This document shows, piece after piece, positions 1 to 17,677 of a stretch of 64,000 nt of DNA (positions are counted from its first letter, which is position 1; each line of letters starts with the position of its first letter). The notes under the pieces are model-generated. The model was not told the DNA's origin and did no database searches. It worked only from the letters and a program-made list of their open reading frames with translations. A program made the position numbers and the translations under genes. Location: the NCBI GenBank assembly GCA_902614395.1, contig CACMKW010000002.1:3356-67355 (forward strand), in the 5' to 3' direction. Source of the stretch: an uncultured Alphaproteobacteria bacterium. GTDB taxonomy: Bacteria > Pseudomonadota > Alphaproteobacteria > HIMB59 > GCA-002718135.

Positions 1-257
1 ATCCAGTTGAAGAATTTGTTTATTCTATTATGATGTGGTCATCTAAATCATTTAAAAAAAATTATAATAAATCTAAAGGATCTATCATTCATGGTAAATT
101 TAAAACTTTTGAGGTTTCACAATATTCTGGGTTAATTGTTAAAAATAAGTACGATTTAGAGGTCATTGAAAGTATTATTAAGAATAAAAATAAGAAAGTT
201 AATAAAGTTAAGTATGATAAATTAATAAAATCATTTAATGTACAAAATAAAAAATAA
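1..257 (+). CDS. 3' end of an unidentified CDS that begins upstream of the window
   Basis: The frame of the listed 30..257 ORF stays open back to base 3 (PVEEFVYSIMMW...), so the ATG at 30 is probably internal. Lys/Asn-rich tail with no motif I recognise. Confidence 0.3.
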   Translation, partial: PVEEFVYSIMMWSSKSFKKNYNKSKGSIIHGKFKTFEVSQYSGLIVKNKYDLEVIESIIKNKNKKVNKVKYDKLIKSFNVQNKK

Positions 258-1320
258 TCTCACAAAACTTAAAAGAATTTCAAAAAAACATGATTTTTAT
301 TTAAACCCTAATGGGATTTACTTAAATAGAAACGAGAGGATAATTCAATTCTCAAATCAAATTCTTAAAAAAATAAGAAATAGTATTACAAGTGAAAGTC
401 TATCTCTTTATCCAGATTTCAATTTATTTTATAAAAAAATCTCAAATTGGCTTAATGTAAAAGAATCAGAAATTTTTTTAAATGAAGGTGTCTCAGGTCT
501 AGTAAAAACTTTATTTGAAACTTTTTGTGATCAAGGTAAATCAAATGTAATCATTCCATTTCCAACATTTGCAATGTACGAAATATTTGCAAAAATTTAT
601 AAGGTTAAAATTAAAAAATTAAAATATGATAAAAAATTTAAAATAAATTTAGATGATATATTTAGAGTAGCAGATAAAAACACATCTTTAATAATTTTAC
701 CTAATCCAAATGTTCCAATTGAGGGGTTTTTAGATTTAACTAAAATTAAAAAAATTCTTAATTTTTGTAAAAAAAATAAGATAATGCTAGTAATTGATGA
801 GGTTTATTATCCTTTCTCTAAATCAACATCAATTGAACTTTTTAGTAAATATAAAAGTCATTTTATTATATTGAGATCTTTTTCAAAGGCATTTGGTTTA
901 GCAGGTATAAGGTTAGGATATGCAATTGGATCCAAAAAAAATATAAAATATTTATCTAAAGTAAGGGGGGGGTATGAAACTAACAACTTATCTGTATTAG
1001 CAGCTTCTGTGCTAATAGATAATTATCATCAAGTAATAAAATATGTTGATGATATTAAGAATGGTATGAAATTTTTTCAAAAAAAATTAAAAAAAATTGG
1101 GATACCATATGTTGGGGGTAATCATGGTAATTATATTTTTGTAAGCTTAAAAAATAAGACTGAAGCTTCTAAAATATATAACGAGTTAAAATATTATAAA
1201 ATTTACGTACGCAGTGGTTGGCCAAAACCTTATGATAATGGCTTACTAATAAGTGGTTCAAATATAAAAATAATGAAAGATGTAAGTAAAGTTTTTGAAA
1301 ATTTTTTTTATAATGAGTAA
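238..1320 (+). CDS. Class I/II (HisC/CobD-like) PLP-dependent aminotransferase
   Basis: 360 aa. PNPNVP substrate/PLP loop and the PLP-lysine context SFSKAFGLAGIRLGY are typical of fold-type I histidinol-phosphate-aminotransferase-like enzymes. Confidence 0.8.
   Translation: MYKIKNNLTKLKRISKKHDFYLNPNGIYLNRNERIIQFSNQILKKIRNSITSESLSLYPDFNLFYKKISNWLNVKESEIFLNEGVSGLVKTLFETFCDQGKSNVIIPFPTFAMYEIFAKIYKVKIKKLKYDKKFKINLDDIFRVADKNTSLIILPNPNVPIEGFLDLTKIKKILNFCKKNKIMLVIDEVYYPFSKSTSIELFSKYKSHFIILRSFSKAFGLAGIRLGYAIGSKKNIKYLSKVRGGYETNNLSVLAASVLIDNYHQVIKYVDDIKNGMKFFQKKLKKIGIPYVGGNHGNYIFVSLKNKTEASKIYNELKYYKIYVRSGWPKPYDNGLLISGSNIKIMKDVSKVFENFFYNE
965..972 (+). repeat. G8 homopolymer inside the aminotransferase CDS (codons AGG GGG GGG, protein RGG)
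   Basis: Read directly: gtaaGGGGGGGGtat. It is the longest G/C run I found in the window; other G or C runs reach 6 at most. Confidence 0.9.
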
Positions 1321-2425: not shown

Positions 2426-3196
2426 ATGATTAATTTAAAAAAAATTAAAAACAAATCAATCTCCGACATATTCAATTTCATTTCATATAAAATTGATTAT
2501 TTCTTAACATATCCAAAAAAAGGCTTTACCAGAAACCATGTTGATAATTTTATGTATAAAAATTTTAGTAAGATTGAATCCGATTTGAAAGTTTTAGATG
2601 TAGGAGCTGGGAATAAACCATATCAAAAATATTTTAATAAATGTCATTATGATACATGTGAGTCATCTGAAGTTTTAAGTCAAATCGGTTATATTGGTAA
2701 GATGAATCATTCTTTTTATTGTGATATTACAAAGTCAATTCCAAGAAATGATAATTATTATGATATCATAATATGTAATGAAGTCTTTGAACATATCAGC
2801 GAGCCTTCAGATGCGCTAAAAGAAATTTACAGAGTTTTAAAACCAAGTGGTAAACTTTTTTTAACTGTTCCTCAATGTCATGGATTACATCAAGAACCTC
2901 ACAATTACTTCAATTATTTATCCTATGGTTTAGAGTATTTACTAAAAAAAAATAAGTTTACTTCCTGCAAAGTATTTCCATTAGGAGGTGTTTATCATTT
3001 ACTTGGAAAAGTAATTCAAAATTCTTTAAATATTTTATTTCAAAAAATTAATTTTAAATTAAGAATTATATTATATCCAATAGAATTAATTATTAAGTTA
3101 GTATTTTTTATTATTTACATTTTTTTATTTTATGTAGATAAAATTGATACCCAAAGAAAATGGACAATAAACTATGGATGTATTGCGACTAAATAA
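2426..3196 (+). CDS. Class I SAM-dependent methyltransferase with a hydrophobic C-terminal tail
   Basis: Motif I VLDVGAGNKPY, post-I acidic residue, LKPSGKLFLTVP motif. The last 50 aa or so are hydrophobic (LRIILYPIELIIKLVFFIIYIFLFY). Confidence 0.8.
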   Translation: MINLKKIKNKSISDIFNFISYKIDYFLTYPKKGFTRNHVDNFMYKNFSKIESDLKVLDVGAGNKPYQKYFNKCHYDTCESSEVLSQIGYIGKMNHSFYCDITKSIPRNDNYYDIIICNEVFEHISEPSDALKEIYRVLKPSGKLFLTVPQCHGLHQEPHNYFNYLSYGLEYLLKKNKFTSCKVFPLGGVYHLLGKVIQNSLNILFQKINFKLRIILYPIELIIKLVFFIIYIFLFYVDKIDTQRKWTINYGCIATK

Positions 3197-3785
3197 TAAA
3201 TTTTTTTACGTTTTTATTAATTTTAATCTGAACAATTACTTACCTAAAGTTGCAATATATAATATTTATAAAATTCAAAACACTCAATATTCAAATTATG
3301 ACCCACAAAAAAATAAAAATCCTATCCTAAATTTAAATTCTTTTAATATTAATAAATTTATAAATGAATTAAATTTTAATATTACTAAAAAAAAACAATT
3401 TATAGATAATATAAACAATAATCTTAATTGTTGTGTAGTTTTGAATAAGAAAGATATAATTCATGAAAATTGGTTCTCTTTATCTTTAATTTCCAATAAA
3501 AATTTTGAAACGTGGTGTGATTTTATTAATTGGAAGTTAGAATCTACATGTGGCAATGCAAGAACTATTGAAATGTTTAAATCAAAAGGTTTTTACTCAG
3601 CAAGTTTATCTAAAATATTTAAATTTTTGATTTCAAAAGGAAAAATAAATACATATTTGTCAGTAAAAAAAAATAATAAAATAGGTAATTTATCTTTGAT
3701 AAAATTTAATCCATCAATTATAGGTATAGGTTATAAAATAAATTTTCTTTTTATTAAGATTTATTTTCTAAAAAAAATAATTTAA
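3174..3785 (+). CDS. Hypothetical protein (weak GNAT-like C-terminal motif)
   Basis: 203 aa ORF in operon context. Low-complexity Asn-rich N-terminal half. GNARTIEMFKSKGFY resembles the N..A...Y.K.GF end of acetyltransferase motif A/B, but this is weak. Confidence 0.4.
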   Translation: MDVLRLNNKFFYVFINFNLNNYLPKVAIYNIYKIQNTQYSNYDPQKNKNPILNLNSFNINKFINELNFNITKKKQFIDNINNNLNCCVVLNKKDIIHENWFSLSLISNKNFETWCDFINWKLESTCGNARTIEMFKSKGFYSASLSKIFKFLISKGKINTYLSVKKNNKIGNLSLIKFNPSIIGIGYKINFLFIKIYFLKKII

Positions 3786-3786
3786 A

Positions 3787-4827
3787 ATGAAAAAAATTAA
3801 GTATTCAGATCTTTTATCATTTTCAAAAAAAATTTTAATTAAATCAAATTTTGATAATAAATCTGCTAAAATTTTAGCTGAATGTCTATGTCAAACTTCA
3901 TTAAGGGGTGTAGACTCTCATGGCATCAGACTTTTAAATCATTATGTTAAGTCTACTATTGCAGGCAATAAAAATGCTAAACCAAAATTCAAAATTTACA
4001 AAAAATTCCCATCAGTTTCTTTACTAGATGCAGACAAAGGATTAGGTCACATAGCAGGATTTAAAGCAATAGAAATAGGTATTAAAGACTGTAAAAAATA
4101 TGGTCTGTCTATGGTTTCTGTTAAAAACTCAAAACATCCAGGCGCTTTAGCGAGTATAGCCATACCTGCTGCAAAAAAAGGATATGCGGTACTTGCTTTC
4201 ACTAATAGCGACTCTCTAATGCTTTCATTTAATGGTAAGAAAGCTCTTTTGGGCACAAACCCTATTTGTTTTGCTTGTCCAAATGGTGAAAATGAACCCT
4301 TTTGTCTTGACATGTCTACTACAACTTATACCTATAATAAATTACTTGTAATAAAAAAAAATAATAAAAAACTTCCTGATAACTTTGCAGCAGATAAAAA
4401 TGGAAATGTAACCTTAAATCCTAATATTGCTAAATCACTTCTTCCATTAGGAGGCTATAAAGGTTTTGGTTTGTCTATAATGGTTGAAATTTTAACAGCA
4501 GTGTTAGCAAATAGCTCTTTAGATTTTGAAATACCAGGAATGTATTCAAAATCAAAAAAGAAAAGGGATATATCACAAACTTACATAATTTTTAAAATTG
4601 AGTCTGTTACAACAAAAAACAAATTTATTAAAAGTTTAAAAAAATTATCTTCTAAAATTAGATCTGATAAAAAAGGAAAAAAGTCAGCAGTTATGCCTAA
4701 TGATCCAGAAAATAAATTTCTCAAAGAAAGAATCAAATACGGTATTCCTTTATCTAATGAAGTTTATAAAGATTTGATGATGTTATCAAAAAAAAATTCT
4801 GTGAAATTGATAGTTTATAATGGATGA
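3787..4827 (+). CDS. Ldh_2 family (malate/L-lactate/sulfolactate/diketogulonate-type) NAD(P)H oxidoreductase
   Basis: 346 aa. LRGVDSHGIRLLNHYV, the SKHPGALA segment and GTNPICFACP match my memory of the Ldh_2 (AllD/ComC/DlgD) family. Confidence 0.8.
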   Translation: MKKIKYSDLLSFSKKILIKSNFDNKSAKILAECLCQTSLRGVDSHGIRLLNHYVKSTIAGNKNAKPKFKIYKKFPSVSLLDADKGLGHIAGFKAIEIGIKDCKKYGLSMVSVKNSKHPGALASIAIPAAKKGYAVLAFTNSDSLMLSFNGKKALLGTNPICFACPNGENEPFCLDMSTTTYTYNKLLVIKKNNKKLPDNFAADKNGNVTLNPNIAKSLLPLGGYKGFGLSIMVEILTAVLANSSLDFEIPGMYSKSKKKRDISQTYIIFKIESVTTKNKFIKSLKKLSSKIRSDKKGKKSAVMPNDPENKFLKERIKYGIPLSNEVYKDLMMLSKKNSVKLIVYNG

Positions 4828-6565
4828 TATTATAGTTGTTGCAAACTTTGACGATGCAAATTTTATTTTAAAAAACTATTCAAATTCACAATATATATTA
4901 ACTTTAACACCTGATATTTATAACTATTTACAAAATAAAAATCTAAAACTGATTGATGTATTTAAAATTAATTATGATAAAATTCATTCTGAAACTATTC
5001 AAAAAACTTTTGTAATTGATAAGTTAATTGAAAAAAAATTAGCAGAGATAAAACTAAGACTTTCAACAAAAGAATATATAAAATTTCAAATCAATGTTTT
5101 CATGTCATCTTTTATTTATCTATCAACATTCATTAAAACTTATAAACAAATTACTATTATTGATGTGAATAAATTTAGAAAAATAAATAATATACATGAT
5201 GAAATTGAAATGATTTTTAATAAAATGTTAAAATTAAGAGGTTTTAGCTATTATTTTCCAACTCAGAGCTCCTATAAAAAAGCAAGTAATTATCTAATTA
5301 AATTAAATAATAATATTTTAAAATATTTTTTTTATAAAAAAAATATTATTTTTTCTTCTGGTGATGAATATGGAATGAATATCTTAAACAAAAAATTACT
5401 AAAGTGTAATAACAATTCACGAATAATCAAATTAGAAAGTTTAGATTCTAAATATTATCTAAAAATCATAATTAATTTATTAAAATTAATTTTCTTAAAA
5501 AAAAAATTTTCAGTATTTCCAATTAATGAATATCAAAAAAATTATATTAATGTAATTAACTCCATTTTTCTAGATTTACAAAATAATGAATTAAAATCTG
5601 CTAAAAATTTAATGATTCCAATATTAGTTGAAGGAGTAAATTATATTGAGAATAATACTAATTATTTTTCTATTTATTTTAGCAAAATCAATATTAATTT
5701 TTTTTTTGCTCATCAAATTAAAATGTCAAATTCATTAATTCTTGCTGAAATTGCAAAGTCAAAGAATGCGAAAACTTTTTTAATATCTCATGGAATACAT
5801 TCGTATTCTAAAAATGCAAATACTCACATCGCACTAAGTGCAAATGCAAGAGGTATGATTGTAAGTTCTCTAGCAAATTTTTCAATAATTCAATCAAAAA
5901 TTTCAAAAAAAGCATTTGATGCATATAACTCAAAAAATATTTCAATTAATTCCTTACCTTTAATGTGGGGAAACAAGAATATTAAAAAGGATAATTATAA
6001 CTTCATCGATAGACAAAAAAAAGTAATCCTCCACGCTAGTACCTTTAAATCATTTAATGTAAGACCATGGATATATGAGTCAACATTTGAGTATATTAAT
6101 GGTTTGAATAAACTAATATCAAAAATTAGAAATTTAAAAGACATTACATTGATAATTAGACTAAGACCAACATCGGAGTGTAGTTATGAAACTCTAGAAA
6201 ACTTAATATCAAAAAGTAGTAATGTATTTTTAAAAAAAGACGGTGATTTTATGGATGATCTTAAAAAAGCATCTTTACTAATAAGCTATTCTTCAACAAC
6301 AATTGAAGAAGCTCTACATGAAAGAGTGCCAGTAGCAATTTATGCAAACTCTATAAGATTTAATCATTTTGAGTGTATAAGTGAAGATATTGATAGTAAA
6401 AGATCAGCAGTTTATAATTTATCTGATCAAAATATGGAAAAAGAATTAAAAAAAATAATCAAGGATCATTTCAATAAACCTTTAACTGATGATGAATTAA
6501 AAAATTATATCTGGACTAAAGAAGACCTAGAACTAACATCTTATAACAAATTAAACTCTTTTTAA
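4820..6565 (+). CDS. Orphan 581-aa protein, C-terminal half resembles a GT-B / capsule-type glycosyl- or phospho-transferase
   Basis: No family motif recognised in the N-terminal half. The C-terminal half has an alternating beta-alpha pattern: KKVILHASTF ... ITLIIRLRPT ... ASLLISYSSTTIEEALHERVPVAIY, like the nucleotide-sugar-binding Rossmann half of TagF/KpsS/sialyltransferase-like enzymes. Confidence 0.5.
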   Translation: MDDIIVVANFDDANFILKNYSNSQYILTLTPDIYNYLQNKNLKLIDVFKINYDKIHSETIQKTFVIDKLIEKKLAEIKLRLSTKEYIKFQINVFMSSFIYLSTFIKTYKQITIIDVNKFRKINNIHDEIEMIFNKMLKLRGFSYYFPTQSSYKKASNYLIKLNNNILKYFFYKKNIIFSSGDEYGMNILNKKLLKCNNNSRIIKLESLDSKYYLKIIINLLKLIFLKKKFSVFPINEYQKNYINVINSIFLDLQNNELKSAKNLMIPILVEGVNYIENNTNYFSIYFSKININFFFAHQIKMSNSLILAEIAKSKNAKTFLISHGIHSYSKNANTHIALSANARGMIVSSLANFSIIQSKISKKAFDAYNSKNISINSLPLMWGNKNIKKDNYNFIDRQKKVILHASTFKSFNVRPWIYESTFEYINGLNKLISKIRNLKDITLIIRLRPTSECSYETLENLISKSSNVFLKKDGDFMDDLKKASLLISYSSTTIEEALHERVPVAIYANSIRFNHFECISEDIDSKRSAVYNLSDQNMEKELKKIIKDHFNKPLTDDELKNYIWTKEDLELTSYNKLNSF

Positions 6566-8316
6566 TGATATTCATAAATAATGTCTCTAAATTTGAAGAA
6601 AATTTAAATGATAAGAAATTTGCCTATCTCTATTCTGAAGATACAAAAAATGATTTGAAAATTGATAATATCAAAAATAAATTAATTCATATAAATCTTA
6701 ATTATGAAATCAACTTTAATGAAATAAGTATCTTTAATAATTATTTTTCAACTATTTCTAAAATAAATAATAATTTTCTTTATTGGTCTTCTGAATTAAG
6801 TTCAAAAAATCGATTTACAACAAAAATATCTCAAAATTTTTTTAAACACTATTTCTTGGTTAAAGAGCTCTTAAAAATTAAAGAAAGCAATATTCTAATT
6901 TTAACTGATGATTATAATATAATACAGACTATAACTTTGAATTTTGAAGACAGATTTATATTTAACGAAAATAAATTTAATTTGAAAAAATATCTAAAAG
7001 AAAAAACAAAGTATTTTTTAAAATTTAAAAAAATATTTTCAGAATTAATATTATTGGCAAATTTAATATTTAAATCAATTATCTCAAGAATTATTTTGAA
7101 TAGAATTGATTTTAAAAATAAATCTTATTTAATTAAAACACACACTTACTATAATCAAATAAATAAATTAAATGTGACTGATATTTTTTTTGGTGACCTA
7201 GAAAAAAATTTTAATAAAAGTTATTTCAAGTTAGCACATTTCCAAAATGATTATTTCAAAACACTTAAATTTATAAGTAAAAATAAATATAATATTTATC
7301 CATTTGAATATTTTATTAGCACATATCAGTTATTATATTTATTTATAAAAAAATATTTCTTTAAGATTAAAATTTTTGAATCTATAAAAAATACAATTAA
7401 GCTTGATCATATATTTATTCATGAAATTCAAAAATCAGGAATTTCACTCAATCATTTATCTTTTTATATCGTTGCAAAAAATTTGTCTAAGATCACAAAT
7501 ATTGAAAAATTATATTTAACTTATGAAAACATTGCATGGGAAAATTCTTTTATCTTTGGTCTTAAAAAATTTATGCCAAACATAAAAATTGTAGGTTATC
7601 AACATACTGTTGTTCCTCAAGCTTCTGTTGGAATGTTTATTAGCTCTCAAGATAATAAAGTAAAACCATTGCCTGATTTAATTTTGACTAATGGATCTGT
7701 GACAAAAAAGATAATAAACCAATATTCTAAATATCCAACTGGATTGGTAGATTCGTCATGCGCTCTTAGATTTAATAATCATTACCATTACTCACTTAAA
7801 AGAAAAAAAATATCAAATATTTTAGTAGTTCTTGAAGGCATTCCAGAAGTGTATAAATTAGTTAATTATATATTAAATTTCTCATTGAATAAAAACTTTA
7901 ATATTACTATCCGCACTCATCCTGTTTTACCTTGGAAAGTGATAAAAAAATTACTTAATTTATCTTCTACGTCTGATAACATTATCATATCTGAAAATAA
8001 ATCACTTCATCATGATTTTAAAAGATCAGATATTTGTATTTATTGGGGAAGCGCAGTATGTTTGGATGCTATAAAATATGGATTGCCAGTTGTGCATTTT
8101 GATGAGGGTAAATACTTAAGTTATGATCCATTGTTTGAATTAAATCAATTCAAATGGATAATTAAACGTACTAATGATCTTGAAATTATTATAAAAAAAA
8201 TCGATAACTTAAAAGCTTCTGAATTTGAAAATAAAAGAAAAAACGCTCAAGATTATGTAGATAAATATTTACATTCTATTAATCAAGAAGATATAAATAA
8301 ATTTTTAATAAAATGA
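6565..8316 (+). CDS. Orphan 583-aa protein, same architecture as the preceding gene (distant paralog, GT-B-like C-terminal half)
   Basis: ILVVLEGIPE ... NITIRTHPVLPW ... SDICIYWGSAVCLDAIKYGLPVVHF parallels the upstream protein segment by segment. Its start overlaps the upstream stop (ATGA-type junction). Confidence 0.5.
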   Translation: MIFINNVSKFEENLNDKKFAYLYSEDTKNDLKIDNIKNKLIHINLNYEINFNEISIFNNYFSTISKINNNFLYWSSELSSKNRFTTKISQNFFKHYFLVKELLKIKESNILILTDDYNIIQTITLNFEDRFIFNENKFNLKKYLKEKTKYFLKFKKIFSELILLANLIFKSIISRIILNRIDFKNKSYLIKTHTYYNQINKLNVTDIFFGDLEKNFNKSYFKLAHFQNDYFKTLKFISKNKYNIYPFEYFISTYQLLYLFIKKYFFKIKIFESIKNTIKLDHIFIHEIQKSGISLNHLSFYIVAKNLSKITNIEKLYLTYENIAWENSFIFGLKKFMPNIKIVGYQHTVVPQASVGMFISSQDNKVKPLPDLILTNGSVTKKIINQYSKYPTGLVDSSCALRFNNHYHYSLKRKKISNILVVLEGIPEVYKLVNYILNFSLNKNFNITIRTHPVLPWKVIKKLLNLSSTSDNIIISENKSLHHDFKRSDICIYWGSAVCLDAIKYGLPVVHFDEGKYLSYDPLFELNQFKWIIKRTNDLEIIIKKIDNLKASEFENKRKNAQDYVDKYLHSINQEDINKFLIK

Positions 8317-9308
8317 AAAGATATAAATGCGCCATTATTGGTTACGGATATATGGGGAAAATCCGTCATAATGTAGTTAATAAAATTCCAAAACTTGATC
8401 TAAAATATATCATTGATGAAAATATAAATATTATTCCAAATAGCTATAAATACATAAAACTTAATAGTTATAAAGAATTAGACTTTGATAAGATTGATAT
8501 AATTTTTGTGTGTACCCCAAATAACATAAGTCCACTAATTATAAAAAAGGCATTAAAGTTTAATAAAAAAATTTTTTGTGAAAAACCTCCTGCAAGAAAT
8601 TTAAGAGATGTTGCAAATATAAGAAAATTAAAAAATTCCTCAACAAATTTAATGTTTGGTTTTAATCATCGCTTTCATCCAGCTATTGAAAAAGCAAAAA
8701 AACTTATTGACTCTAAAAAATTTGGTAAAGTTATTTCTCTTAGAGGTGTTTATGGTAAATCAGGTGGTATAAATTTTAAAAAATCATGGAGAAATAATAT
8801 TAAAATTTCAGGTGGCGGTATTCTTTTAGATCAAGGAATACATATGATAGATATCTTTAGGTTTTTCTGTGGTAATTTTGAAAAGATAAAATCCTTTCAA
8901 TCAAATATTTTTTGGAAATTTGATATTGAAGATAATGCATTTTTGATTTTAAAAAATAAAAATAATCAATTAGCAAGCTTGCATTCTTCATCGACATTAT
9001 GGAGACACACATTTAGAATAGATGTAACTTTGGAAAAAGGTTATTTTCTAGTTGAGGGTCTATTATCTAAAACAGGAAGTTATGGGCAAGAAAAAATTAC
9101 ATATGCACCTAGACAATTTGAAAATATTTCAAAAGCAATTGGTAACCCAACTGAAACAGTGGTTTACTATGATACTGATAATTCATGGCTTAACGAAGTA
9201 AAAGCTTTTTTAAAATTTATTGAAAATAAATCAAAAATTAAAATAAATAATATTGATGATGCTTATTCTGCTATGCAAATAGTAGATAAAGCATATAAGC
9301 AGGATTAA
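8313..9308 (+). CDS. Gfo/Idh/MocA family NAD(P)-dependent oxidoreductase
   Basis: N-terminal Rossmann CAIIGYGYMGKIRH and the family EKP motif (IFCEKPPA). 331 aa. Confidence 0.8.
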   Translation: MKRYKCAIIGYGYMGKIRHNVVNKIPKLDLKYIIDENINIIPNSYKYIKLNSYKELDFDKIDIIFVCTPNNISPLIIKKALKFNKKIFCEKPPARNLRDVANIRKLKNSSTNLMFGFNHRFHPAIEKAKKLIDSKKFGKVISLRGVYGKSGGINFKKSWRNNIKISGGGILLDQGIHMIDIFRFFCGNFEKIKSFQSNIFWKFDIEDNAFLILKNKNNQLASLHSSSTLWRHTFRIDVTLEKGYFLVEGLLSKTGSYGQEKITYAPRQFENISKAIGNPTETVVYYDTDNSWLNEVKAFLKFIENKSKIKINNIDDAYSAMQIVDKAYKQD

Positions 9309-9310
9309 TT

Positions 9311-9922
9311 ATGAAAAAAAAATATGTTGAAAGATATTTGGAGGAAGTTGCAAAAATTGCCAAAACAATTGACAAAAATAAAATTAATAAAGTTATAAAC
9401 AGATTAGTTAAACTAAGAAAAGAAAATGGAAGAGTTTTTTTTATTGGTGTTGGGGGCAGTGCTTCTAATTGCTCTCATGCTGTAAATGATTTTAGAAAGA
9501 TAGCTCAAATAGAATCTTACACACCTGTTGATAATGTTGCAGAATTAACAGCAAGGACAAATGATGAGGGTTGGGATACTGTGTTTTCAGCTTGGTTAGA
9601 GAGAAGTAGAGTTAATAAAAAAGATTTATTATTTGTTTTAAGTGTTGGTGGTGGTAATATTAAAAAAAATGTTAGTGTGAATTTAATTCATGCTATTAAT
9701 TATTCAATTAAGAAAAGATGTGATGTAGCTGGTATAATAGGTAGAGATGGTGGTTACGTTAATAAGAAAAGTAATTTATGTATACTTGTACCCTCCCAAT
9801 CAAACGATACAATTACTCCTCTTGCAGAATCTTGGCAATCTATAGTTTGGCATTTAATAGTTAGCGATCCAAGAATAATTAAATATTCTAATAAATGGGA
9901 ATTTCTTGATAAAATGAAATAA
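9311..9922 (+). CDS. SIS-domain sugar-phosphate isomerase (GmhA/phosphoheptose isomerase-like)
   Basis: GRVFFIGVGGSASNCSHAVNDFRK matches the GmhA-type G.GGS...A.H pattern. About 200 aa, typical for single-SIS isomerases. Confidence 0.75.
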   Translation: MKKKYVERYLEEVAKIAKTIDKNKINKVINRLVKLRKENGRVFFIGVGGSASNCSHAVNDFRKIAQIESYTPVDNVAELTARTNDEGWDTVFSAWLERSRVNKKDLLFVLSVGGGNIKKNVSVNLIHAINYSIKKRCDVAGIIGRDGGYVNKKSNLCILVPSQSNDTITPLAESWQSIVWHLIVSDPRIIKYSNKWEFLDKMK

Positions 9923-10674
9923 TGTTACTTTTAAAAAGGATTTTAAATAAAATAAAAAAAATCAATAAAAAACTTAAGAGAGTTTTCACTAATAAAATTT
10001 ATTACAATAATAGCTCTTTTAAACTGAGAGCAAATAACTGGATAACAAAATATAGATTTGATACATTTGAAAATAAAGAACCAGAAACTCTTAAATGGAT
10101 AGATAATAATTTAAGAGAAAATGATGTTTTTTTTGATGTAGGAGCAAATATTGGAATTTATTCTTTATATGCTGCCTCAAAAAAATTTAATAATTCTAAA
10201 ATTTATAGTTTTGAGCCAGAATATTCTAATTTAAATGAATTGAAGTTTAATGTTTTAAACAATGGTTTTACAAATAACATAAATATTTTTTCAATTGCTT
10301 TTGGGGAATTTAGCCATCTTTCTTTTTTGCAGATAAATGATATAACTCCCGGTGCAGCATTACACTATTTAAGTAATTCTAATGCTCCTTTATCTAGTAT
10401 TTCCGAGGGAGTTTTTGTGATGAAAATTGATGAGTTTTGTAATCAGCAAAATATTTTTCCTAATCTTATTAAAGTAGATATAGATGGAAATGAGGATAAA
10501 TTTTTAAATGGAGCTACAAATTTGCTTAAAAATAAAAATTTAAGATCGATAATAATTGAACTTGATGATAAACAAAACAGAGACAAATGTATCAGTATAA
10601 TTAAAAAAAATGGGTTTGATTTAATTGATAATTATAAAAGTAACCAATCTTTTATTTTTTCTAAAAAGAAATGA
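9922..10674 (+). CDS. FkbM family methyltransferase
   Basis: FFDVGANIGIYSLYAA (motif I), FEPE, and LIKVDIDGNEDKFLNG, typical of FkbM-type O-methyltransferases. Confidence 0.8.
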   Translation: MLLLKRILNKIKKINKKLKRVFTNKIYYNNSSFKLRANNWITKYRFDTFENKEPETLKWIDNNLRENDVFFDVGANIGIYSLYAASKKFNNSKIYSFEPEYSNLNELKFNVLNNGFTNNINIFSIAFGEFSHLSFLQINDITPGAALHYLSNSNAPLSSISEGVFVMKIDEFCNQQNIFPNLIKVDIDGNEDKFLNGATNLLKNKNLRSIIIELDDKQNRDKCISIIKKNGFDLIDNYKSNQSFIFSKKK

Positions 10675-10736
10675 ATTTAACAAACAATATAAAAAATGTT
10701 TAGATTAATTTATCCATAAGTTGTAATACCTATATT

Positions 10737-11495
10737 ATGAAATTAAATAATAAATTTAAAAATTTAAATAAAATCTATGGAGGTTGGTTATCCATAAACA
10801 ATTTTCAACTATGTGATATTTTATCTAACATGCAAATTGATTTTTTAGGTGTTGATTTGGAGCATACTCCTACTTCAATAGATCAATTTTTAAAATTTGT
10901 AACTATTTGTCATTCAAAAAAAATTAGTTGTTTGCCAAGAATTCCTGATTTAGATAATGCATTAATAAAGAGATTATTAGATTCAGGAGCAGATGGTGTT
11001 ATAGCTCCAAGTATAGAAAATGTTGAACAGATTGAATTTTTAGAAAATTCAATTTTTTATCCTCCTAATGGCTCCAGAGGATATGGAGTATCCAAAGCTT
11101 CTAATTATGGCTTAGCTTTTAATAAATATGTAAAAAATTGGAATAAAAATGCCGTATTAATTATTCAGATTGAATCTATTAAAGCTATAAAAAACTTGGA
11201 GTCTTTAATATCAAAAAAATGTGTGAGTGGAGTAATGATTGGACCTTATGATATTTCAGGTTCTTTAGGTATTCCAGGAGAATTAAGTCACCCAGAGGTA
11301 CTGAATGCTTGTAAAGAAATATTATCAATCTGCAAGAAATATAAAAAATCATGTGGAATACATGATACTGATCCAAATTCTAAGTCTTTAAAATTGCTAG
11401 ATAAAAATGGATATAATTTCATTGTTATTGGTTCAGATATTTTTTTATTAACCAAATGGGTTAATAGCATGAACAAACTATTAAATGAAAAGTGA
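10737..11495 (+). CDS. HpcH/HpaI family class II (pyruvate-dependent) aldolase
   Basis: 252 aa. LGVDLEHTP, IQIESIKAIKNLESL and MIGPYDISGSLG correspond to the metal/pyruvate-binding segments of HpaI/GarL/RhmA-type 2-keto-3-deoxy-acid aldolases. Confidence 0.8.
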   Translation: MKLNNKFKNLNKIYGGWLSINNFQLCDILSNMQIDFLGVDLEHTPTSIDQFLKFVTICHSKKISCLPRIPDLDNALIKRLLDSGADGVIAPSIENVEQIEFLENSIFYPPNGSRGYGVSKASNYGLAFNKYVKNWNKNAVLIIQIESIKAIKNLESLISKKCVSGVMIGPYDISGSLGIPGELSHPEVLNACKEILSICKKYKKSCGIHDTDPNSKSLKLLDKNGYNFIVIGSDIFLLTKWVNSMNKLLNEK

Positions 11496-12271
11496 ATAAA
11501 AACAACTATATAAAAAACTATTTTGATTTTTCTAATAAAACAGTTGTAATCACAGGAGGTTCTGGACATCTTTGTGGTGAGATGGCAACAACTTTTCTTA
11601 AACTTGGATCAACAGTATTTATATTAGATAAAAATATAAAAAAAATAGACAAAAAAAAATTTATAATTTTTAGAAATAAGATATTTTTTAAGAAAATTGA
11701 TTTAATTAATAAAAGTCAAATTAAAACTTCTCTAAAGTATATTTTAAATAAATCTAATAAGATTGATATTTTAATTAATGGAGCTGGAGCAAATTCCCCA
11801 AAAAGTTTTTTTGATATTACTGAAAAAGATTGGCAATTCGTAATTGATAGCCAACTAAAATCAACATTTTTATCTTGTCAAATTTTTGGTAAACAAATGA
11901 TAAAGCAAAAACATGGCAGTATATTAAATATAAGCTCAGCTTCTGCAGGCCCTCCATTATCAAAAGCATTTGCGTATTCTGCTGCAAAATCTGGAATAAA
12001 AAATTTAACACAAAATTTAGCTAGAGAGTGGGCTACTAAAGGTGTAAGAGTAAATGCTTTAAGGCCAGGTTTCTTTCCAACACGATGGAGTATGGAAAAT
12101 TTTATTGATAAACAAAGAAAAGAAAAAATTTTTCAACATACGCCTATGAAAAGATTTGGAAATCCGAAAGAATTGATCACCGCAGTATTGTTTATTTGTT
12201 CAGATAAATCAACTTTTCTTACTGGTAGTGAGATTGCTGTTGACGGAGGATTTGGAGCTATGACTATATGA
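11492..12271 (+). CDS. SDR family oxidoreductase
   Basis: VVITGGSGHLCGEMA cofactor motif, NGAG, catalytic YSAAKSG. GTG start in a GTGA overlap with the upstream stop. Confidence 0.85.
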   Translation: MNKNNYIKNYFDFSNKTVVITGGSGHLCGEMATTFLKLGSTVFILDKNIKKIDKKKFIIFRNKIFFKKIDLINKSQIKTSLKYILNKSNKIDILINGAGANSPKSFFDITEKDWQFVIDSQLKSTFLSCQIFGKQMIKQKHGSILNISSASAGPPLSKAFAYSAAKSGIKNLTQNLAREWATKGVRVNALRPGFFPTRWSMENFIDKQRKEKIFQHTPMKRFGNPKELITAVLFICSDKSTFLTGSEIAVDGGFGAMTI

Positions 12272-13023
12272 ATCAAGATAAAAGAGTAGTTTTGATAACT
12301 GGAGGATCTTCGGGAATTGGTTTCGAGATAGCTATTAAATATTTTGAAAATGATTGGAATGTTGTAATTTTAGGAAGAAAAAAATATAATTATTTTCCAA
12401 AATCAAAAAAATTTAAATTTGTAAAAGGCGATGTAATCAGTGAGAATTCTCATTTATTAACTGCAAAATCAGCTATTAAATTTTTTAACAGACTTGATTG
12501 TTATATAAATTGCGCAGGTATTTCTGAGTGGAAATCTATAGATAACGTAAATAGAAAATTTTGGGATAAAATAATTAATACTAATCTTTTAGGTACTATG
12601 TGGGGATGCAAAACTGCCTCAAATTTTCTTTCTAAAAATGGGTCAATTATTAACATTTCAAGTATTGCTGGGAAAAGAGGAAGTGCAAACAATTCTGTCT
12701 ATTGCGCATCTAAATTTGGAGTAAATGGAATAACGCAATCATTATCTAAAGAATTGGGTATAAAAAAAATAAGAGTTAATTCTGTTTGCCCTGTATATAT
12801 TAAAACAAAAGGTCTTGAAAACGCATTGAGACATAAAGTTTCTCCAACCAATGGTAAAAAAATCGATTCGTATTTAGAAAAATTTATAAGACAAAATTCA
12901 TCTCTTAAAAGTTTACCAACTAGTGAAGATGTCGCAAATTTTTGTTATTTCTTATCATCAGATAAAGCTAAATCAATTACCGGACAATGTTTAAATATTG
13001 ACTCCGGCGTCTTTCCTCAATGA
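12268..13023 (+). CDS. SDR family oxidoreductase (classical, FabG-like)
   Basis: VVLITGGSSGIGFE, NCAG, catalytic YCASKFG. 4-nt overlap with the upstream gene. Confidence 0.85.
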   Translation: MNQDKRVVLITGGSSGIGFEIAIKYFENDWNVVILGRKKYNYFPKSKKFKFVKGDVISENSHLLTAKSAIKFFNRLDCYINCAGISEWKSIDNVNRKFWDKIINTNLLGTMWGCKTASNFLSKNGSIINISSIAGKRGSANNSVYCASKFGVNGITQSLSKELGIKKIRVNSVCPVYIKTKGLENALRHKVSPTNGKKIDSYLEKFIRQNSSLKSLPTSEDVANFCYFLSSDKAKSITGQCLNIDSGVFPQ

Positions 13024-13793
13024 AGAAAGAAAAAATAGTAGCTATAATTCCATCAAGAATGGCATCAACTAGATTACCTGGAAAGCCATTATTGAAAATT
13101 TATAACTTAGAATTAATAGAGCACGTAAGAAGAAGAGCCTTGTTAAGTAAATTTTTTGATGAAGTATATGTTGCCACTTGTGATAGGGAAATTGCAAGTA
13201 TCGTTAAACAAAATAATGGTAAGGTAATCATGACATCAGACAAACATTTTGATTGCAATGAAAGAATATTAGAGGCTTCAAAAAAAATTAATGCAAAATT
13301 TATTGTAAATGTTCAGGGTGATGAAATACTAGTTCATCCTAAAAACTTAGATATGATATGCAAAACAATTGTAAAAGATAAGAAATCTATGTATTGGAAT
13401 GCGATTTCTAAAATAGAAGACAAAAAAGATTTAATAAACGATACAGTAGTTAAATGTTATATTTCAAAAAATAAAAATATATTATTCTGCTCAAGAAAAG
13501 AGGAAATTATAAAAAGAATAGATCCAAATATTCCAATTATGAAATTATTAGGACTTCAAGCTTTTAAAAAATCAGCTTTAAAAATTTATTCTAAGAACAA
13601 CATTACACCGTTAGAGAAAAATTTTTCAATTGGTCAAATGAGAATTTTAGAAAATAATCATAATTTAAAGTCTATTAATATAAAAAATGGATATAGGGGG
13701 ATTGATAAAAAAAGAGATATAATATATGCTAAAAACATATTAACTAGAGATAAAGAGCAAATAAAGATTTTAAATAAAATTATAAATCATTAA
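13020..13793 (+). CDS. KdsB-like cytidylyltransferase (CMP-3-deoxy-ulosonate synthetase family)
   Basis: IVAIIPSRMASTRLPGKPL and VNVQGDE closely follow the KdsB signature (IIPAR.ASTRLPGKPL / NVQGDEP), not the NeuA one. Confidence 0.8.
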   Translation: MKKEKIVAIIPSRMASTRLPGKPLLKIYNLELIEHVRRRALLSKFFDEVYVATCDREIASIVKQNNGKVIMTSDKHFDCNERILEASKKINAKFIVNVQGDEILVHPKNLDMICKTIVKDKKSMYWNAISKIEDKKDLINDTVVKCYISKNKNILFCSRKEEIIKRIDPNIPIMKLLGLQAFKKSALKIYSKNNITPLEKNFSIGQMRILENNHNLKSINIKNGYRGIDKKRDIIYAKNILTRDKEQIKILNKIINH

Positions 13794-13813
13794 TAAAATA
13801 AAATAAGTATTTT

Positions 13814-14494
13814 ATGGCAATTTTTTTAGACACAGGGAAAGTAGACGAAATCAAAAAGTACCATGATTATGGTATAATAAGAGGTGTGACTACCAATCCT
13901 TCTATACTAATAAAAGAGGGATTAGGAACAAATTTACAAGAATTAAAAAAAAAATTTATTGAAATTGCTGATTTGATAAATCCGCTTCCTTTATCTTTAG
14001 AAGTTACTTCAAATGAAACTTCTGAAATGTTTGAACAAGCAGAATTATTTGCAGGATGGGCTGATAATATTAACGTAAAAATCACAATTCACGGTCCTAA
14101 TGGTGAATTGAATAATTTAAAAGTTATAAATCAATTAGAAAACAAAAAAAATATCAGAGTAAATGTTACCGCTATGATGAGTGCACAGCAATGTTATCTT
14201 GCAGCTCAAGCTGGTGCAACTTATGTGTCTATTTTTGGAGGTAGAATTAATAATATGGGTTATGATTCAAATAAGGAAATATATATTTTAAGAAATTTAT
14301 TGGATAAATTTAATCTTAATTCTAAAATTATAGTTGGTTCTACTAGAGAAATTATTAATATAACTCAATGGCTAAATGCAGGTGCACATATAGTAACTTG
14401 TCATCCTAATTTTCTAGAGGGAATGCTGATCCATCCATATACAAAAGAAACTGTACAAATGTTTCTAAATGATGGAAATAAAATTAAAAAATAA
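13814..14494 (+). CDS. Short (type 3B) transaldolase / fructose-6-phosphate aldolase family protein
   Basis: 226 aa. FLDTG ... GVTTNPSIL N-terminus, the Schiff-base lysine region NVKIT, and the size fit FSA/TalC-type enzymes. Confidence 0.85.
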   Translation: MAIFLDTGKVDEIKKYHDYGIIRGVTTNPSILIKEGLGTNLQELKKKFIEIADLINPLPLSLEVTSNETSEMFEQAELFAGWADNINVKITIHGPNGELNNLKVINQLENKKNIRVNVTAMMSAQQCYLAAQAGATYVSIFGGRINNMGYDSNKEIYILRNLLDKFNLNSKIIVGSTREIINITQWLNAGAHIVTCHPNFLEGMLIHPYTKETVQMFLNDGNKIKK

Positions 14495-15436: not shown

Positions 15437-16122
15437 AACTAAGTATAGTAATACCATGCTTTAATGAAGAAAATACAATTATAGATATATTAAAGCTAGT
15501 TAAAAAAAATCCTTATAAAGATATTGAAATTATAGTAGTGGATGATTTTTCTAAGGATAACACAAGGAAGATCCTCTCAGAAAATCGACAATATTATGAT
15601 GTCTTAGAATTACACGATCAAAATAGAGGTAAAGGTTCAGCTATAAGGACAGGTTTAAATAGAGTTTCTGGAGAAATAGTTTTAATTCAAGACGCAGATT
15701 TAGAATACGATCCTAACGAATATCTAGATCTATTGGGGCCAATTTTAAACAATAAAGCCGATGTTGTTTATGGATCAAGATTTCAGGGAGGTAAACCACA
15801 TAGAATTTTATATTTTTGGCATACTATAGGAAATAAATTTCTTACATTATTCTCAAATATGTTTACAAATTTGAATTTAACGGACATGGAATGCTGTTAT
15901 AAAGTATTTAGATCAGACATAATAAAAAAAATTAAATTAAAAGAAAATAGATTTGGTTTTGAACCTGAAGTTACAGCTAAAATAGCTAAGTTGAATTGCA
16001 GAATATATGAGGTTGGAGTTTCTTACTATGGCAGGACTTATAAAGAGGGTAAAAAAATAGGATGGAAAGATGGTATAAGTGCAATTATTTGTATAATTAA
16101 ATATGGAATATTTAGTAAATAA
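15433..16122 (+). CDS. GT2 polyprenyl-phosphate glycosyltransferase (DPM1/ArnC-like)
   Basis: LSIVIPCFNEE, VVDDFSKDNT, QDADLEYDP and GSRF are characteristic of the lipid-phosphate sugar synthase subgroup of GT2. Confidence 0.8.
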   Translation: MKLSIVIPCFNEENTIIDILKLVKKNPYKDIEIIVVDDFSKDNTRKILSENRQYYDVLELHDQNRGKGSAIRTGLNRVSGEIVLIQDADLEYDPNEYLDLLGPILNNKADVVYGSRFQGGKPHRILYFWHTIGNKFLTLFSNMFTNLNLTDMECCYKVFRSDIIKKIKLKENRFGFEPEVTAKIAKLNCRIYEVGVSYYGRTYKEGKKIGWKDGISAIICIIKYGIFSK

Positions 16123-17677
16123 AAAATTTTTTACACTTTTTTTTATACTAATTATGTTTTTCTTAATTTATTTTTTTCAAAATACAACAAACTATACAAA
16201 TTTTAAATTAAATTGGGATGAAGTAGATTATGCAAATGTAGCTTCTAAAGGAATAATAAATAATTATATTGATAGAGATAGTATAAGTTTTAAGACTTTT
16301 ACAGCAATTGGATTATCAAAATTTAAAAATAAAGAAGTATTTGTAGATAAAAATTTAACAGTATTAGAACATAATGATAATTTTAACTTAAGACATTTTC
16401 ATCCACCACTTCCAGTTTATTATTGGTCAATATTCACAAATGATAAAAATACTAATGAAATAAATGCTAGAAATCTTAGATTTAGTAATTTACTTTTATA
16501 CTTTGTTATATTTGTTTTTTTTACAATTTTTATTCATCTAAATTCTATAAATATAAAAAATTATTTTCTATCAACAAGTCTTTTATTTTTTTACTTAACT
16601 AATATTAATGTAATCGAATCATTTTTAAATTTACATTTTCATAATTTTTTTTCAATTATTTTTTTTTATCATATTTATTCAGTCATAATATATTTTAATG
16701 AAAAAAATGATGTATACTCAAGAGCAAATTTTACTTTTTCTATTTCACTTTTAATAATCACATTGGAAACATTTCCTATTGTATTAATAACAACAATTTT
16801 AATTTATTTATTATTTCCAATTAAGAATAAGAAAAAAATAAATTTATTTGAATTGATTAAAAATTTTGTTACTGCAATATTTATTGCTATAATTTTATTC
16901 CCATCCTCAATTGTTAAACTTACTTACCTAAAAACTTTTTTAATGTATTTTTATAGAATTTTTGCAAAAAATAATGAGGAATATAGTGAGATTAATTATT
17001 TGGATAATTGGAAAAATTTTTTCTTTGATAATCTTCTTGTTTTATTGGTAATAATTTTTGTTCTATCATTTTATCTTCTTAGAAATAAAATTGATAAAAA
17101 ATACTTAATATACTTCTTTTATATATTTGCTTACTCAATAATTATGACACCATTTATTTTATCATATACATATGTTTTTCCAGTTATTTTTATTTTTATT
17201 TGTTTAACCATCCAAATAATTAATAAAACAAAATTAAACAGTTATGAATTTGTATTATTATTATCTATTTTTGCGATTACAATATCTATAAATATTTTAG
17301 CAATTAATAGTAAAAATTATTACACTAACTTTCAGCTTTATAATAATAAAATTGATACTATTATTTCTGAATATTTAATTGATAAAAAAAATAAAAATAT
17401 ACTAATAGATGGCGCTCATATCTTTAATTATTATTCTGAAAATACGAATTTTATAAATCTAAATATAATGTCTTTAAGTAATCCTAGTTTTTATATAAGA
17501 AAAAATTACAAAAACATAAAAATTAATGAAAAAATTAAAAATAATTATTTTGATATGATTATTATTCAATCAAACAGAAGTTATACTGATGAAAAGATCA
17601 AGTTTCTTTATGACAGTGGTTACAAATCATTAGATAATTATGAAGGATATAATATATATAAATTAGATAATGGATAA
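16103..17677 (+). CDS. Polytopic membrane protein, probable GT-C glycosyltransferase (PMT/ArnT-like)
   Basis: 524 aa with 10 or more hydrophobic segments. The first loop after TM1 carries WDEVDYANV, resembling the DE(V)HF acidic motif of PMT/ArnT enzymes. The soluble C-terminal domain and the position directly after a lipid-P-sugar synthase also fit. Confidence 0.55.
   Translation: MEYLVNKKFFTLFFILIMFFLIYFFQNTTNYTNFKLNWDEVDYANVASKGIINNYIDRDSISFKTFTAIGLSKFKNKEVFVDKNLTVLEHNDNFNLRHFHPPLPVYYWSIFTNDKNTNEINARNLRFSNLLLYFVIFVFFTIFIHLNSINIKNYFLSTSLLFFYLTNINVIESFLNLHFHNFFSIIFFYHIYSVIIYFNEKNDVYSRANFTFSISLLIITLETFPIVLITTILIYLLFPIKNKKKINLFELIKNFVTAIFIAIILFPSSIVKLTYLKTFLMYFYRIFAKNNEEYSEINYLDNWKNFFFDNLLVLLVIIFVLSFYLLRNKIDKKYLIYFFYIFAYSIIMTPFILSYTYVFPVIFIFICLTIQIINKTKLNSYEFVLLLSIFAITISINILAINSKNYYTNFQLYNNKIDTIISEYLIDKKNKNILIDGAHIFNYYSENTNFINLNIMSLSNPSFYIRKNYKNIKINEKIKNNYFDMIIIQSNRSYTDEKIKFLYDSGYKSLDNYEGYNIYKLDNG

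Follow-up and report, generated by a model that had tools for sequence, protein, structure and literature searches.

Two unclassified protein families with a predicted GT-B fold are candidate transferases for CMP-activated sugar acids

Two adjacent genes in DNA from an uncultured alphaproteobacterium (contig CACMKW010000002.1 of assembly GCA_902614395.1, positions 3,356 to 67,355; this whole stretch of 64,000 nucleotides is the window) probably encode glycosyltransferases (GTs) of the GT-B fold that use ulosonic acids activated with cytidine monophosphate (CMP). Their products, protein A and protein B, belong to two unclassified families, and each would serve the biosynthetic module that flanks it. 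[quoted passage not shown] They are wanted for glyco-engineering and for grasping how phages and predators recognize cell surfaces. A GT-B transferase of CMP-ulosonic acids is a known kind of enzyme; both families are outside Pfam and have only sub-threshold matches in NCBIfam. Here, we describe the two open reading frames (ORFs), their predicted fold, the size of their families, the conservation of their motifs and their gene linkage, and from these we infer the CMP-sugar donor, the pairing of each transferase with a module, the acceptor and the catalytic residues.

Results

The two genes and their predicted fold

4820..6565, + strand: protein A, 581 amino acids, GT-B-fold candidate glycosyltransferase of the unnamed family A
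6565..8316, + strand: protein B, 583 amino acids, candidate glycosyltransferase with the GT-B fold, from family B (sister group to TIGR04326)

An initial annotation, made from the letters of the window alone, had described two adjacent ORFs of 581 and 583 amino acids. Both are located on the plus strand, and the peptides quoted from them are present in the translations. The gene for protein A overlaps the upstream Ldh_2 gene by 8 nucleotides and the gene for protein B by a single nucleotide (stop and start in TAATG), and the gene for protein B overlaps the following Gfo/Idh/MocA gene by 4 nucleotides; the genes are therefore probably read as one transcript, in an operon layout. The same annotation could name no family signature in either protein, and indeed both score under every Pfam and NCBIfam cut-off. 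In Pfam, protein A comes closest to DUF6716 ("putative glycosyltransferase"), with an E-value of 0.043. Searches with the single proteins or with family profiles found no meaningful sequence relatives of A or B in the PDB; what they returned, twinfilin and spore coat proteins for instance, was noise.

AlphaFold2 models were built from the family alignments and compared with the PDB by Foldseek, of which the top 50 matches were considered. The model of A has a mean predicted local distance difference test score (pLDDT) of 91.3 and a predicted template modelling score (pTM) of 0.92; the values for B are 89.0 and 0.90. At probability 1.0, Foldseek returned only GT-B proteins for both models, with 400-450 aligned columns, E-values between 1e-8 and 1e-6, and best E-values of 3.5e-8 (A) and 1e-8 (B). 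The matches include UDP-N-acetylglucosamine (UDP-GlcNAc) 2-epimerases, GT1 UDP-glycosyltransferases, MurG, BshA, TarM and WaaA. Because they span 400-450 columns, both Rossmann domains are matched and not only the C-terminal half. The earlier proposal of a GT-B-like C-terminal half was right about the fold and too narrow about its extent, since the predicted GT-B fold covers the whole of both proteins. The GT-B cleft referred to below is the one predicted from these fold matches. No family-level DXD site is present in the alignment of either family, which fits a metal-independent GT-B enzyme.

The N-terminal half had also been called long, helical and rich in lysine and asparagine. Both models are instead alpha/beta throughout, with alternating strands and helices and long helical insertions at residues 52-105 and 256-286 of A and 138-178 of B. 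The richness is real, but it is a property of the whole protein (lysine 12-13% and asparagine 11% overall; lysine 11% in the C-terminal part) and reflects a GC content of 22% rather than a domain feature. A transmembrane anchor was considered and rejected: A has none, and B has one borderline hydrophobic helix (residues 156-178) whose position is not conserved across the family.

Conserved residues and the predicted CMP-binding site

Sialyltransferases (GT29/38/42/52/80) and retaining Kdo transferases (GT99/107) share a conserved (K/R)XHP motif, in which the K/R touches the cytosine, the His touches the CMP phosphate and the Pro stacks on the base (PMC12887879). In the Kdo transferase KrkA (GT140), the subject of a 2026 structural paper, His227 is followed by Ser271 and Ser272 at the phosphate, Val273 at the cytosine and Glu276 at the ribose (PMC12887879). 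We counted residue conservation in alignments of 151 family B and 87 family A proteins. The sites of interest are as follows.

7912..7923, + strand: RTHP at B residues 450-453, a match to the CMP-binding motif (K/R)XHP
8047..8067, + strand: B residues 495-501, GSAVCLD (consensus GSTVxLE), predicted CMP phosphate, cytosine and ribose contacts
7525..7605, + strand: B residues 321-347, shortly ahead of the C-terminal Rossmann domain, candidates for the general base or the acceptor site
6158..6169, + strand: A residues 447-450, RLRP, Arg variant (K/R)XRP of the CMP-binding motif
6290..6310, + strand: SSTTIEE at A residues 491-497, in the nucleotide-binding Rossmann domain, predicted to bind phosphate and ribose
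5786..5800, + strand: A residues 323-327, SHGIH (consensus SHGSH), candidate catalytic or acceptor-side residues

The initial annotation had remarked on an H-P dipeptide in the second protein and judged its resemblance to sialyltransferases weak. The resemblance is in fact strong: R/K450 is found in 151 of the 151 family B proteins, H452 in 150 and P453 in 143, so that (K/R)XHP is almost invariant. Downstream, S/T496 is present in all 151, position 497 is T, A or S, V498 is present in 128 and E/D501 in 144. Counted from H452, these four positions lie at +44, +45, +46 and +49, the same offsets as from His227 to Ser271, Ser272, Val273 and Glu276 of KrkA, in a comparison that is arithmetic on published residue numbers and not a superposition. 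In family A, R/K447 occurs in 87/87 proteins; position 449 is Arg in 85 of them and His in two, and P450 is present in 51. S492 and T493 are invariant (87/87), and E496 and E497 are found in 84 and 82 of the 87. S492 and T493 lie at +43 and +44 from R449, and the spacing of T493 equals the His-to-Ser spacing of KrkA, again by number and not by superposition. At the family level, there is no [KR]x[HR]P site other than RLRP in family A and none other than RTHP in family B.

A second group of conserved residues lies ahead of the C-terminal Rossmann domain. H324 (87/87) and H327 (81/87) of A closely follow the model beta-strand at 318-322, and family B has E321 (151/151), W325 (150/151), E326 (150/151), Q346 (144/151) and H347 (147/151). 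Neither family has a conserved Qxxx[DE] site corresponding to the QXXXD nucleophile motif of GT99/107/140, which makes a double-displacement mechanism of the GT99/107 type unlikely. Neither has a conserved [DE][DE]G site corresponding to the D/E-D/E-G motif of bacterial sialyltransferases.

Sequence relatives and the nearest known systems

Pfam and NCBIfam were used as proxies for membership of CAZy GT families. Every family B protein tested, the 46 of the first search and 10 further members, matches TIGR04326 over the region of about 300-570. Against a cut-off of 250 bits, B of the window reaches 38 bits and the ten further members reach 31-59; the 46 have a best E-value of 9.5e-20. In family B, 30/46 members match TIGR04396 ("surface carbohydrate biosynthesis protein"), and in family A 13/78 do. 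NF046086 is matched by 18/46 family B members (best E 7.4e-11) and 23/78 family A members (best E 1.7e-8), with bit scores of 17-37 printed for individual members (cut-off 200); the window's own A and B gave no NF046086 match at the thresholds used. As all these scores are below the cut-offs, A and B are relatives of the three families and not members of them.

NF046086 is the BFO_1060 family, which includes Tanf_01245 and TFUB4_00887 of Tannerella forsythia; when these genes are deleted, the O-glycan loses its terminal pseudaminic or legionaminic acid (PMC5420450). Judged by sequence similarity, it is the only named, genetically validated family with significant similarity to A and B. In common with A and B, its members have a predicted GT-B fold, an HP motif and genes that adjoin a pathway for a CMP-ulosonic acid (PMC5420450). 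They differ in length (about 445 amino acids against about 580), and the similarity is confined to the C-terminal domain. The Tannerella enzymes were reported to have DXD and D/E-D/E-G motifs (PMC5420450), neither of which is conserved in A or B. Unlike the Tannerella setting, the pathways linked to A and B have no NeuB, PseI or LegI-type synthases. TIGR04326 (O_ant_LIC13510) is of the same length class as B (a model of 602 positions) and is annotated in O-antigen-type loci. It carries a surface carbohydrate biosynthesis label without a demonstrated function, and B is a sister family of it, not a member.

The CMP-Kdo and CMP-sialic acid transferases share the GT-B fold with A and B, and WaaA (GT30) is among the Foldseek matches of B (E 2.4e-7). 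KrkA of GT140 shares with B the (K/R)XHP motif and, by residue number, the spacing of a downstream Ser/Ser-Val-x-x-Glu, and the cytidylyltransferase linked to B is KdsB-like. WaaA is the only enzyme of GT30, GT38, GT52, GT80, GT99, GT107 or GT140 in the Foldseek top 50, and the N-terminal region of A and B is about twice as long as in these enzymes. Neither A nor B matches Pfam Glycos_transf_N, Capsule_synth, A-2_8-polyST, Glyco_transf_52 or PM0188. For Capsule_synth (PF05159; KpsC/KpsS, GT107) this holds up to an E-value of 10, and 1/46 family B members matches it at E 0.0039. Glyphos_transf (PF04464, TagF-type) is matched by neither protein nor by any homologue tested. There is no match above the cut-off to Epimerase_2 or to NeuC/PseG; three family A members match Epimerase_2 at E 0.05-0.1 only, and single members match PseG (one of family B) and NeuC_NnaA (one of family A, E 0.0013) with E-values of about 1e-3. 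The searchable literature has nothing on TIGR04326, LIC13510 or TIGR04396, on members of families A and B, or on a glycan pathway that combines an HpcH aldolase with a cytidylyltransferase.

Family sizes and the relationship between A and B

The two proteins had been called orphans, a label that does not fit either family. Family A comprises 96 homologue clusters (90% identity) and occurs at 54 loci when contigs are drawn from one genome per species. It extends over more than 10 phyla, and every genome locus comes from a metagenome-assembled or single-amplified genome. The hosts are Cyanobacteria, Pelagibacteraceae, SAR324, Leptospiraceae, Omnitrophota, Planctomycetia, Latescibacterota, candidate phyla radiation (CPR) groups, Elusimicrobia, SAR86, Dehalococcoidia and one Micrarchaeota bin. 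For family B, an exhaustive HMMER search with its profile found 5,774, 3,967 and 1,388 representative proteins (clusters at 50% identity) at E-values of at most 1e-3, 1e-10 and 1e-30, and 170 metagenome loci were found. A word-indexed search had given only 46 family B clusters, and a second one with the B profile added almost nothing; it was the exhaustive search that revealed the size of the family. The viral collections contained no homologue of family A or family B.

The "matching segments" noted earlier in the C-terminal halves reflect real homology. BLASTP aligns A and B with 26% identity over 89 amino acids (E 9e-5), and hhalign aligns the two family profiles over 138 C-terminal columns with 97% probability (E 5.8e-11). 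The same pairwise comparison does not bear out a tandem pair of paralogues, because the N-terminal 400 residues have no detectable homology (hhalign probability 3.5%), and we rejected duplication on this ground. By sequence comparison, A and B are two distinct large families with a common nucleotide-binding C-terminal domain, and not the outcome of a recent duplication. Their adjacency is confined to marine, AT-rich contigs (L001, L064, L066, L067, L077, L079, L081, L091 and L102 in our numbering of loci). Elsewhere the two are mostly separate: B is present in 15/58 A loci and A in 8/85 B loci.

Gene neighbourhoods of families A and B

In the window, two modules meet at the A/B junction, with two CMP-activating enzymes, one on each side (3-254 and 13020-13793). 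The genes had initially been placed between keto-acid tailoring genes and CMP-sugar genes; a cytidylyltransferase gene is indeed present downstream, and the second one, truncated, lies at the window start. Module 1, upstream, has the following genes.

3..254, + strand: NeuA-like cytidylyltransferase (CTP1), C-terminal 84 codons, cut by the window start
238..1320, + strand: class I/II aminotransferase (Pfam Aminotran_1_2, E 3.8e-41), in the same position in L001 and L102
1295..2425, + strand: FAD-dependent oxidoreductase of the DAO family (Pfam DAO, E 2.3e-39)
2426..3196, + strand: class I S-adenosylmethionine-dependent methyltransferase (Pfam Methyltransf_23, Methyltransf_11)
3174..3785, + strand: 203-amino-acid ORF between the methyltransferase and Ldh_2, no Pfam match
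3787..4827, + strand: Ldh_2-family 2-hydroxy/2-keto-acid dehydrogenase (Pfam Ldh_2, E 1.3e-93)

The CTP1 fragment is 47% identical to the C-terminus of a CTP_transf_3 protein at L001:2665-3369, the best PDB relatives of which are CMP-NeuAc synthetases (1eyr, E 6e-12), and CTP1 is likely the activating enzyme of module 1. The Ldh_2 protein scores under the cut-offs for sulfolactate and ureidoglycolate dehydrogenases. The 203-amino-acid ORF has one weak homologue only, in the syntenic marine locus L102 (64 bits). Among family A loci, Ldh_2 is found in 32/63 (first count) or 30/58 (by clustering), and a NeuA-like cytidylyltransferase of the CTP1 type in 44/63. A further companion is a Gfo-like protein of 393 amino acids. 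The most strongly conserved neighbour of family A is a fusion of about 450 amino acids, a GT2 domain with a PseF-like cytidylyltransferase domain, found at L001:7805-9157 and more than 30 other loci with 430-570 bits across phyla.

Module 2, downstream, consists of these genes.

8313..9308, + strand: Gfo/Idh/MocA oxidoreductase, first gene of the module (Pfam GFO_IDH_MocA)
9311..9922, + strand: SIS_2 sugar-phosphate isomerase, weakly GmhA-like (Pfam SIS_2; TIGR00441 gmhA 50.7 bits, cut-off 209)
9922..10674, + strand: FkbM-family methyltransferase (Pfam Methyltransf_21, TIGR01444)
10737..11495, + strand: HpcH/HpaI class II pyruvate aldolase (Pfam HpcH_HpaI, E 5.7e-27; HpaI/GarL-like, under their cut-offs)
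11492..12271 and 12268..13023, + strand: two SDR oxidoreductases, the first of which resembles sugar-acid dehydrogenases
13020..13793, + strand: KdsB-like cytidylyltransferase (CTP2), activating enzyme of the module (Pfam CTP_transf_3, E 1.2e-37)
13814..14494, + strand: fructose-6-phosphate aldolase (FSA)/transaldolase, TAL_FSA (Pfam TAL_FSA, E 7.1e-38; TIGR00875 152.6 bits, cut-off 246)

The first SDR scores 238.8 bits with the NCBIfam D-mannonate oxidoreductase model (cut-off 281) and is also KduD-like. CTP2 scores 198 bits with NF009905 (cut-off 255) and matches PDB 1gq9, the capsule-specific CMP-Kdo synthetase, with an E-value of 6.9e-27. The order B, Gfo/Idh/MocA, (methyltransferase), SIS, TAL, HpcH, HAD, SDR, SDR, CTP_transf_3, 2-hydroxyacid dehydrogenase (2-Hacid_dh) recurs in Thermodesulfobacteriota, groundwater, marine and other metagenome contigs. 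The module, of 7-10 genes whose order is kept between distant phyla, is present in the window (8313-14494) and at L005, L006, L008, L078, L085-L095, L105, L111 and L128. The window's copy has no HAD or 2-Hacid_dh gene, and the HAD phosphatase is present in most other loci. The Gfo/Idh/MocA gene comes after B at nearly all loci; by count, it occurs in 48/85 B loci, many of which are short contigs. Among the 25 B loci with at least 8 kb downstream, CTP2 is found in 17, HpcH in 16, the Gfo/Idh/MocA and SIS genes in 14, and the full order in at least 12. No other glycosyltransferase-like gene consistently linked to module 2 was found among the B loci. Co-occurrence with cytidylyltransferases, which the initial annotation had suggested checking, is thus found for both families and across phyla (44/63 A loci; 17/25 B loci). 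P0144 (JGI 3300072015), a distant relative of family B, is encoded directly after HpcH and CTP_transf_3 genes, in a cluster that also holds SIS_2, Gfo/Idh/MocA, HAD and FkbM genes.

Module 2 is similar to the Kdo pathway (KdsD-KdsA-KdsC-KdsB) in having a SIS isomerase, an aldol-type condensation, a HAD protein (in most loci) and a KdsB-like cytidylyltransferase. It differs in its condensation enzyme, a class II pyruvate aldolase of the HpcH/HpaI type in place of a phosphoenolpyruvate-dependent KdsA/NeuB synthase, and in its isomerase, which is GmhA-like rather than KdsD-like. In addition, module 2 has the FSA/transaldolase, the Gfo/Idh/MocA protein, two SDRs, a 2-hydroxyacid dehydrogenase and methyltransferases. 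With a GmhA-like isomerase next to an enzyme of the transaldolase type, the precursor could, but need not, be a heptose phosphate.

Other features of the window

The GC content of the window is 18-29% over the first 38 kb and 27-35% from 38 to 64 kb. The rise at about 38000 probably marks where a variable glycan island gives way to core genes. Also in the island are five GT2 genes, one GT4 gene, a GT2-GT4 fusion (27875-30178), AsnB, rmlABCD and EpsG. Interleaved with the GT2 genes are two ORFs without a Pfam match, at 16103-17677 (524 amino acids) and 18536-20038 (500 amino acids), each with 8-9 hydrophobic segments; these may be undescribed polymerases, flippases or GT-C-like membrane proteins. 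Two antisense ORFs, 4047-4313 (minus strand, 88 amino acids, inside Ldh_2) and 11288-11569 (minus strand, 93 amino acids, across the HpcH/SDR junction), are most likely spurious. An Rfam scan of the window found no RNA genes. The loci closest to the window are labelled Alphaproteobacteria or Pelagibacteraceae.

The P0144 cluster also contains a DHQ-synthase-like sugar-phosphate cyclase, an FkbH-like protein, a small ORF of carrier-protein size and a phosphopantetheinyl transferase, gene content that hints at the same sugar acid in an acylated form. A 2026 preprint describes CMP-activated C10 ulosonic acids of the diamino Pse/Leg type in Magnetospirillum gryphiswaldense, with the genes unassigned (bioRxiv 10.64898/2026.04.20.719630). 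We considered these acids as products of the genes described here and set them aside, as no link to families A or B is established.

Discussion

We consider it likely that A and B are GT-B glycosyltransferases of CMP-ulosonic acids, from two unclassified families, each of which serves its own flanking module. The initial annotation had proposed them as transferase or polymerase candidates for a CMP-activated acid, and candidacy as transferases is supported here by the agreement of fold, motif and linkage. It had also stated what would speak against that proposal, namely models without a Rossmann or GT-B fold, confident homology to a non-transferase family, or homologues that never co-occur with nucleotide-sugar genes. 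We found confident GT-B models, no sequence-level relatives other than TIGR04326, TIGR04396 and NF046086, and cytidylyltransferases beside homologues from many phyla.

How might these enzymes work? A and B would be soluble or peripheral, metal-independent GT-B enzymes with only the C-terminal nucleotide-binding Rossmann domain in common. Each would add a CMP-activated 2-keto-3-deoxy sugar acid of the ulosonic type, made by the adjoining genes, to a growing surface glycan. Protein B would use the product of module 2, which would be made by the Gfo/Idh/MocA, SIS, FSA/transaldolase, HpcH and two SDR proteins and the KdsB-like cytidylyltransferase under the logic of the Kdo pathway; the HpcH/HpaI aldolase is the proposed carbon-carbon bond-forming step that yields the 3-deoxy-2-keto acid. 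Protein A would use the product of module 1, which has the NeuA-like cytidylyltransferase, the aminotransferase, the DAO oxidoreductase and Ldh_2. We suggest that the C-terminal domain holds CMP by (K/R)XHP in B, or (K/R)XRP in A, together with the S/T-rich turn, and that the upstream invariant His and Glu residues activate the acceptor (candidates are H324 and H327 in A, and E321, E326 and H347 in B). The acceptor, which we infer from the downstream genes, is presumably a lipid-linked repeat unit of O-antigen or capsule, built by the GT2 and GT4 enzymes and polymerised by EpsG.

Several observations weigh against this interpretation. The Foldseek matches are generic, with target TM-scores of 0.4-0.56 and about 10% identity, and UDP-GlcNAc 2-epimerases, GT1, MurG and WaaA are on a par in score. 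The top 50 for A or B include no sialyltransferase, KpsC, WbbB or TagF, so that the specific likeness to TagF, KpsC/KpsS or sialyltransferases that was first suggested has no counterpart in structural kinship at this depth. All NCBIfam matches of the two families are far under the curated cut-offs, and the window's protein A has no NCBIfam match at E-values of at most 0.01. Family A has Arg in place of the motif His in 85/87 members, and the agreement of B with KrkA is one of residue numbers. About one third of the B loci with long flanks have no module 2 detectable by tblastn. The GT2-cytidylyltransferase fusion is absent from the window, where tblastn gives only generic GT2 matches, although the gene may sit upstream of the window start. 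Finally, the evidence is computational, and neither family has an experimentally studied member.

The generic character of the fold matches raises the question of whether A, B or both are instead GT-B-fold nucleotide-sugar hydrolases or hydrolysing 2-epimerases, similar to NeuC, LegG or PseG, which would free an aldose from a nucleoside diphosphate (NDP)-sugar for condensation with pyruvate by HpcH. UDP-GlcNAc 2-epimerases, including NeuC, are at or near the top of the Foldseek matches for both models, the weak Epimerase_2, PseG and NeuC_NnaA matches of individual members point the same way, and NDP-sugar genes are common in the same islands. However, the epimerase matches are no better than those to GT1, MurG, WaaA and BshA, and among named families the closest in sequence is one whose members a knock-out has proven to be transferases. 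Moreover, the conserved (K/R)XHP and S/T-T-V-x-x-E look like a signature of CMP binding and not of UDP or GDP binding, and the isomerase, the FSA/transaldolase and the usual HAD phosphatase of module 2 point to a sugar-phosphate precursor rather than an NDP-sugar. We regard a hydrolase or epimerase as improbable. More improbable still is that A, B or both take a CDP-activated donor or some other cytidine donor that is not ulosonic, such as the CDP-alditol phosphate used by TagF, or that they are non-catalytic assembly scaffolds. The T. forsythia relatives were first annotated with a TagB-like domain, and the Arg of family A could suit a different phosphate arrangement. Yet the linked CTP_transf_3 enzymes are of the KdsB and NeuA types, which make CMP-ulosonates and are not CDP-alcohol cytidylyltransferases; Glyphos_transf is not matched; and the very strong conservation of polar residues at the predicted cleft argues for catalysis.

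A different question is whether A, B or both add single residues or act processively, in the manner of a polysialyltransferase, KpsC or TagF, to make a homopolymer or an alternating polymer of the acidic sugars. At about 580 amino acids with large helical insertions, both exceed a minimal GT-B enzyme. Their genes lie side by side in marine genomes, probably with translational coupling, a layout that an alternating co-polymer would lead one to expect, and ABC transporter genes of the sort typical of ABC-dependent capsules adjoin homologues in L004 and L005. However, the two families mostly occur independently, as the low counts of shared loci show, and no Capsule_synth, polysialyltransferase or Glyphos_transf match was found in Pfam. 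The window itself encodes EpsG, which is Wzy-like, and many GT2 and GT4 genes for single additions, typical of a repeat-unit pathway. We consider a polymerase unlikely and favor transfer of single CMP-activated acids by both proteins.

A broader proposal, which we put forward only tentatively, is that family B and its linked module form a widespread system for a new Kdo-like ulosonic acid made by a class II pyruvate aldolase, that family A is a second new GT family, with Arg for His, acting on another CMP-acid, and that both would be new CAZy families. Under the interpretation that we favor, two large unannotated families take their place in the class of CMP-acidic-sugar transferases, and each is tied to its own cytidylyltransferase-containing pathway. 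Module 2 resembles a route to a Kdo-like sugar that is built on a pyruvate aldolase and is so far undescribed; under the broader proposal, if a heptose phosphate is supplied by the GmhA-like isomerase, the product could be a sugar with a higher number of carbons. Altogether, such pairs of enzyme and pathway could explain part of the hypervariable surface-glycan islands in abundant AT-rich marine bacteria.

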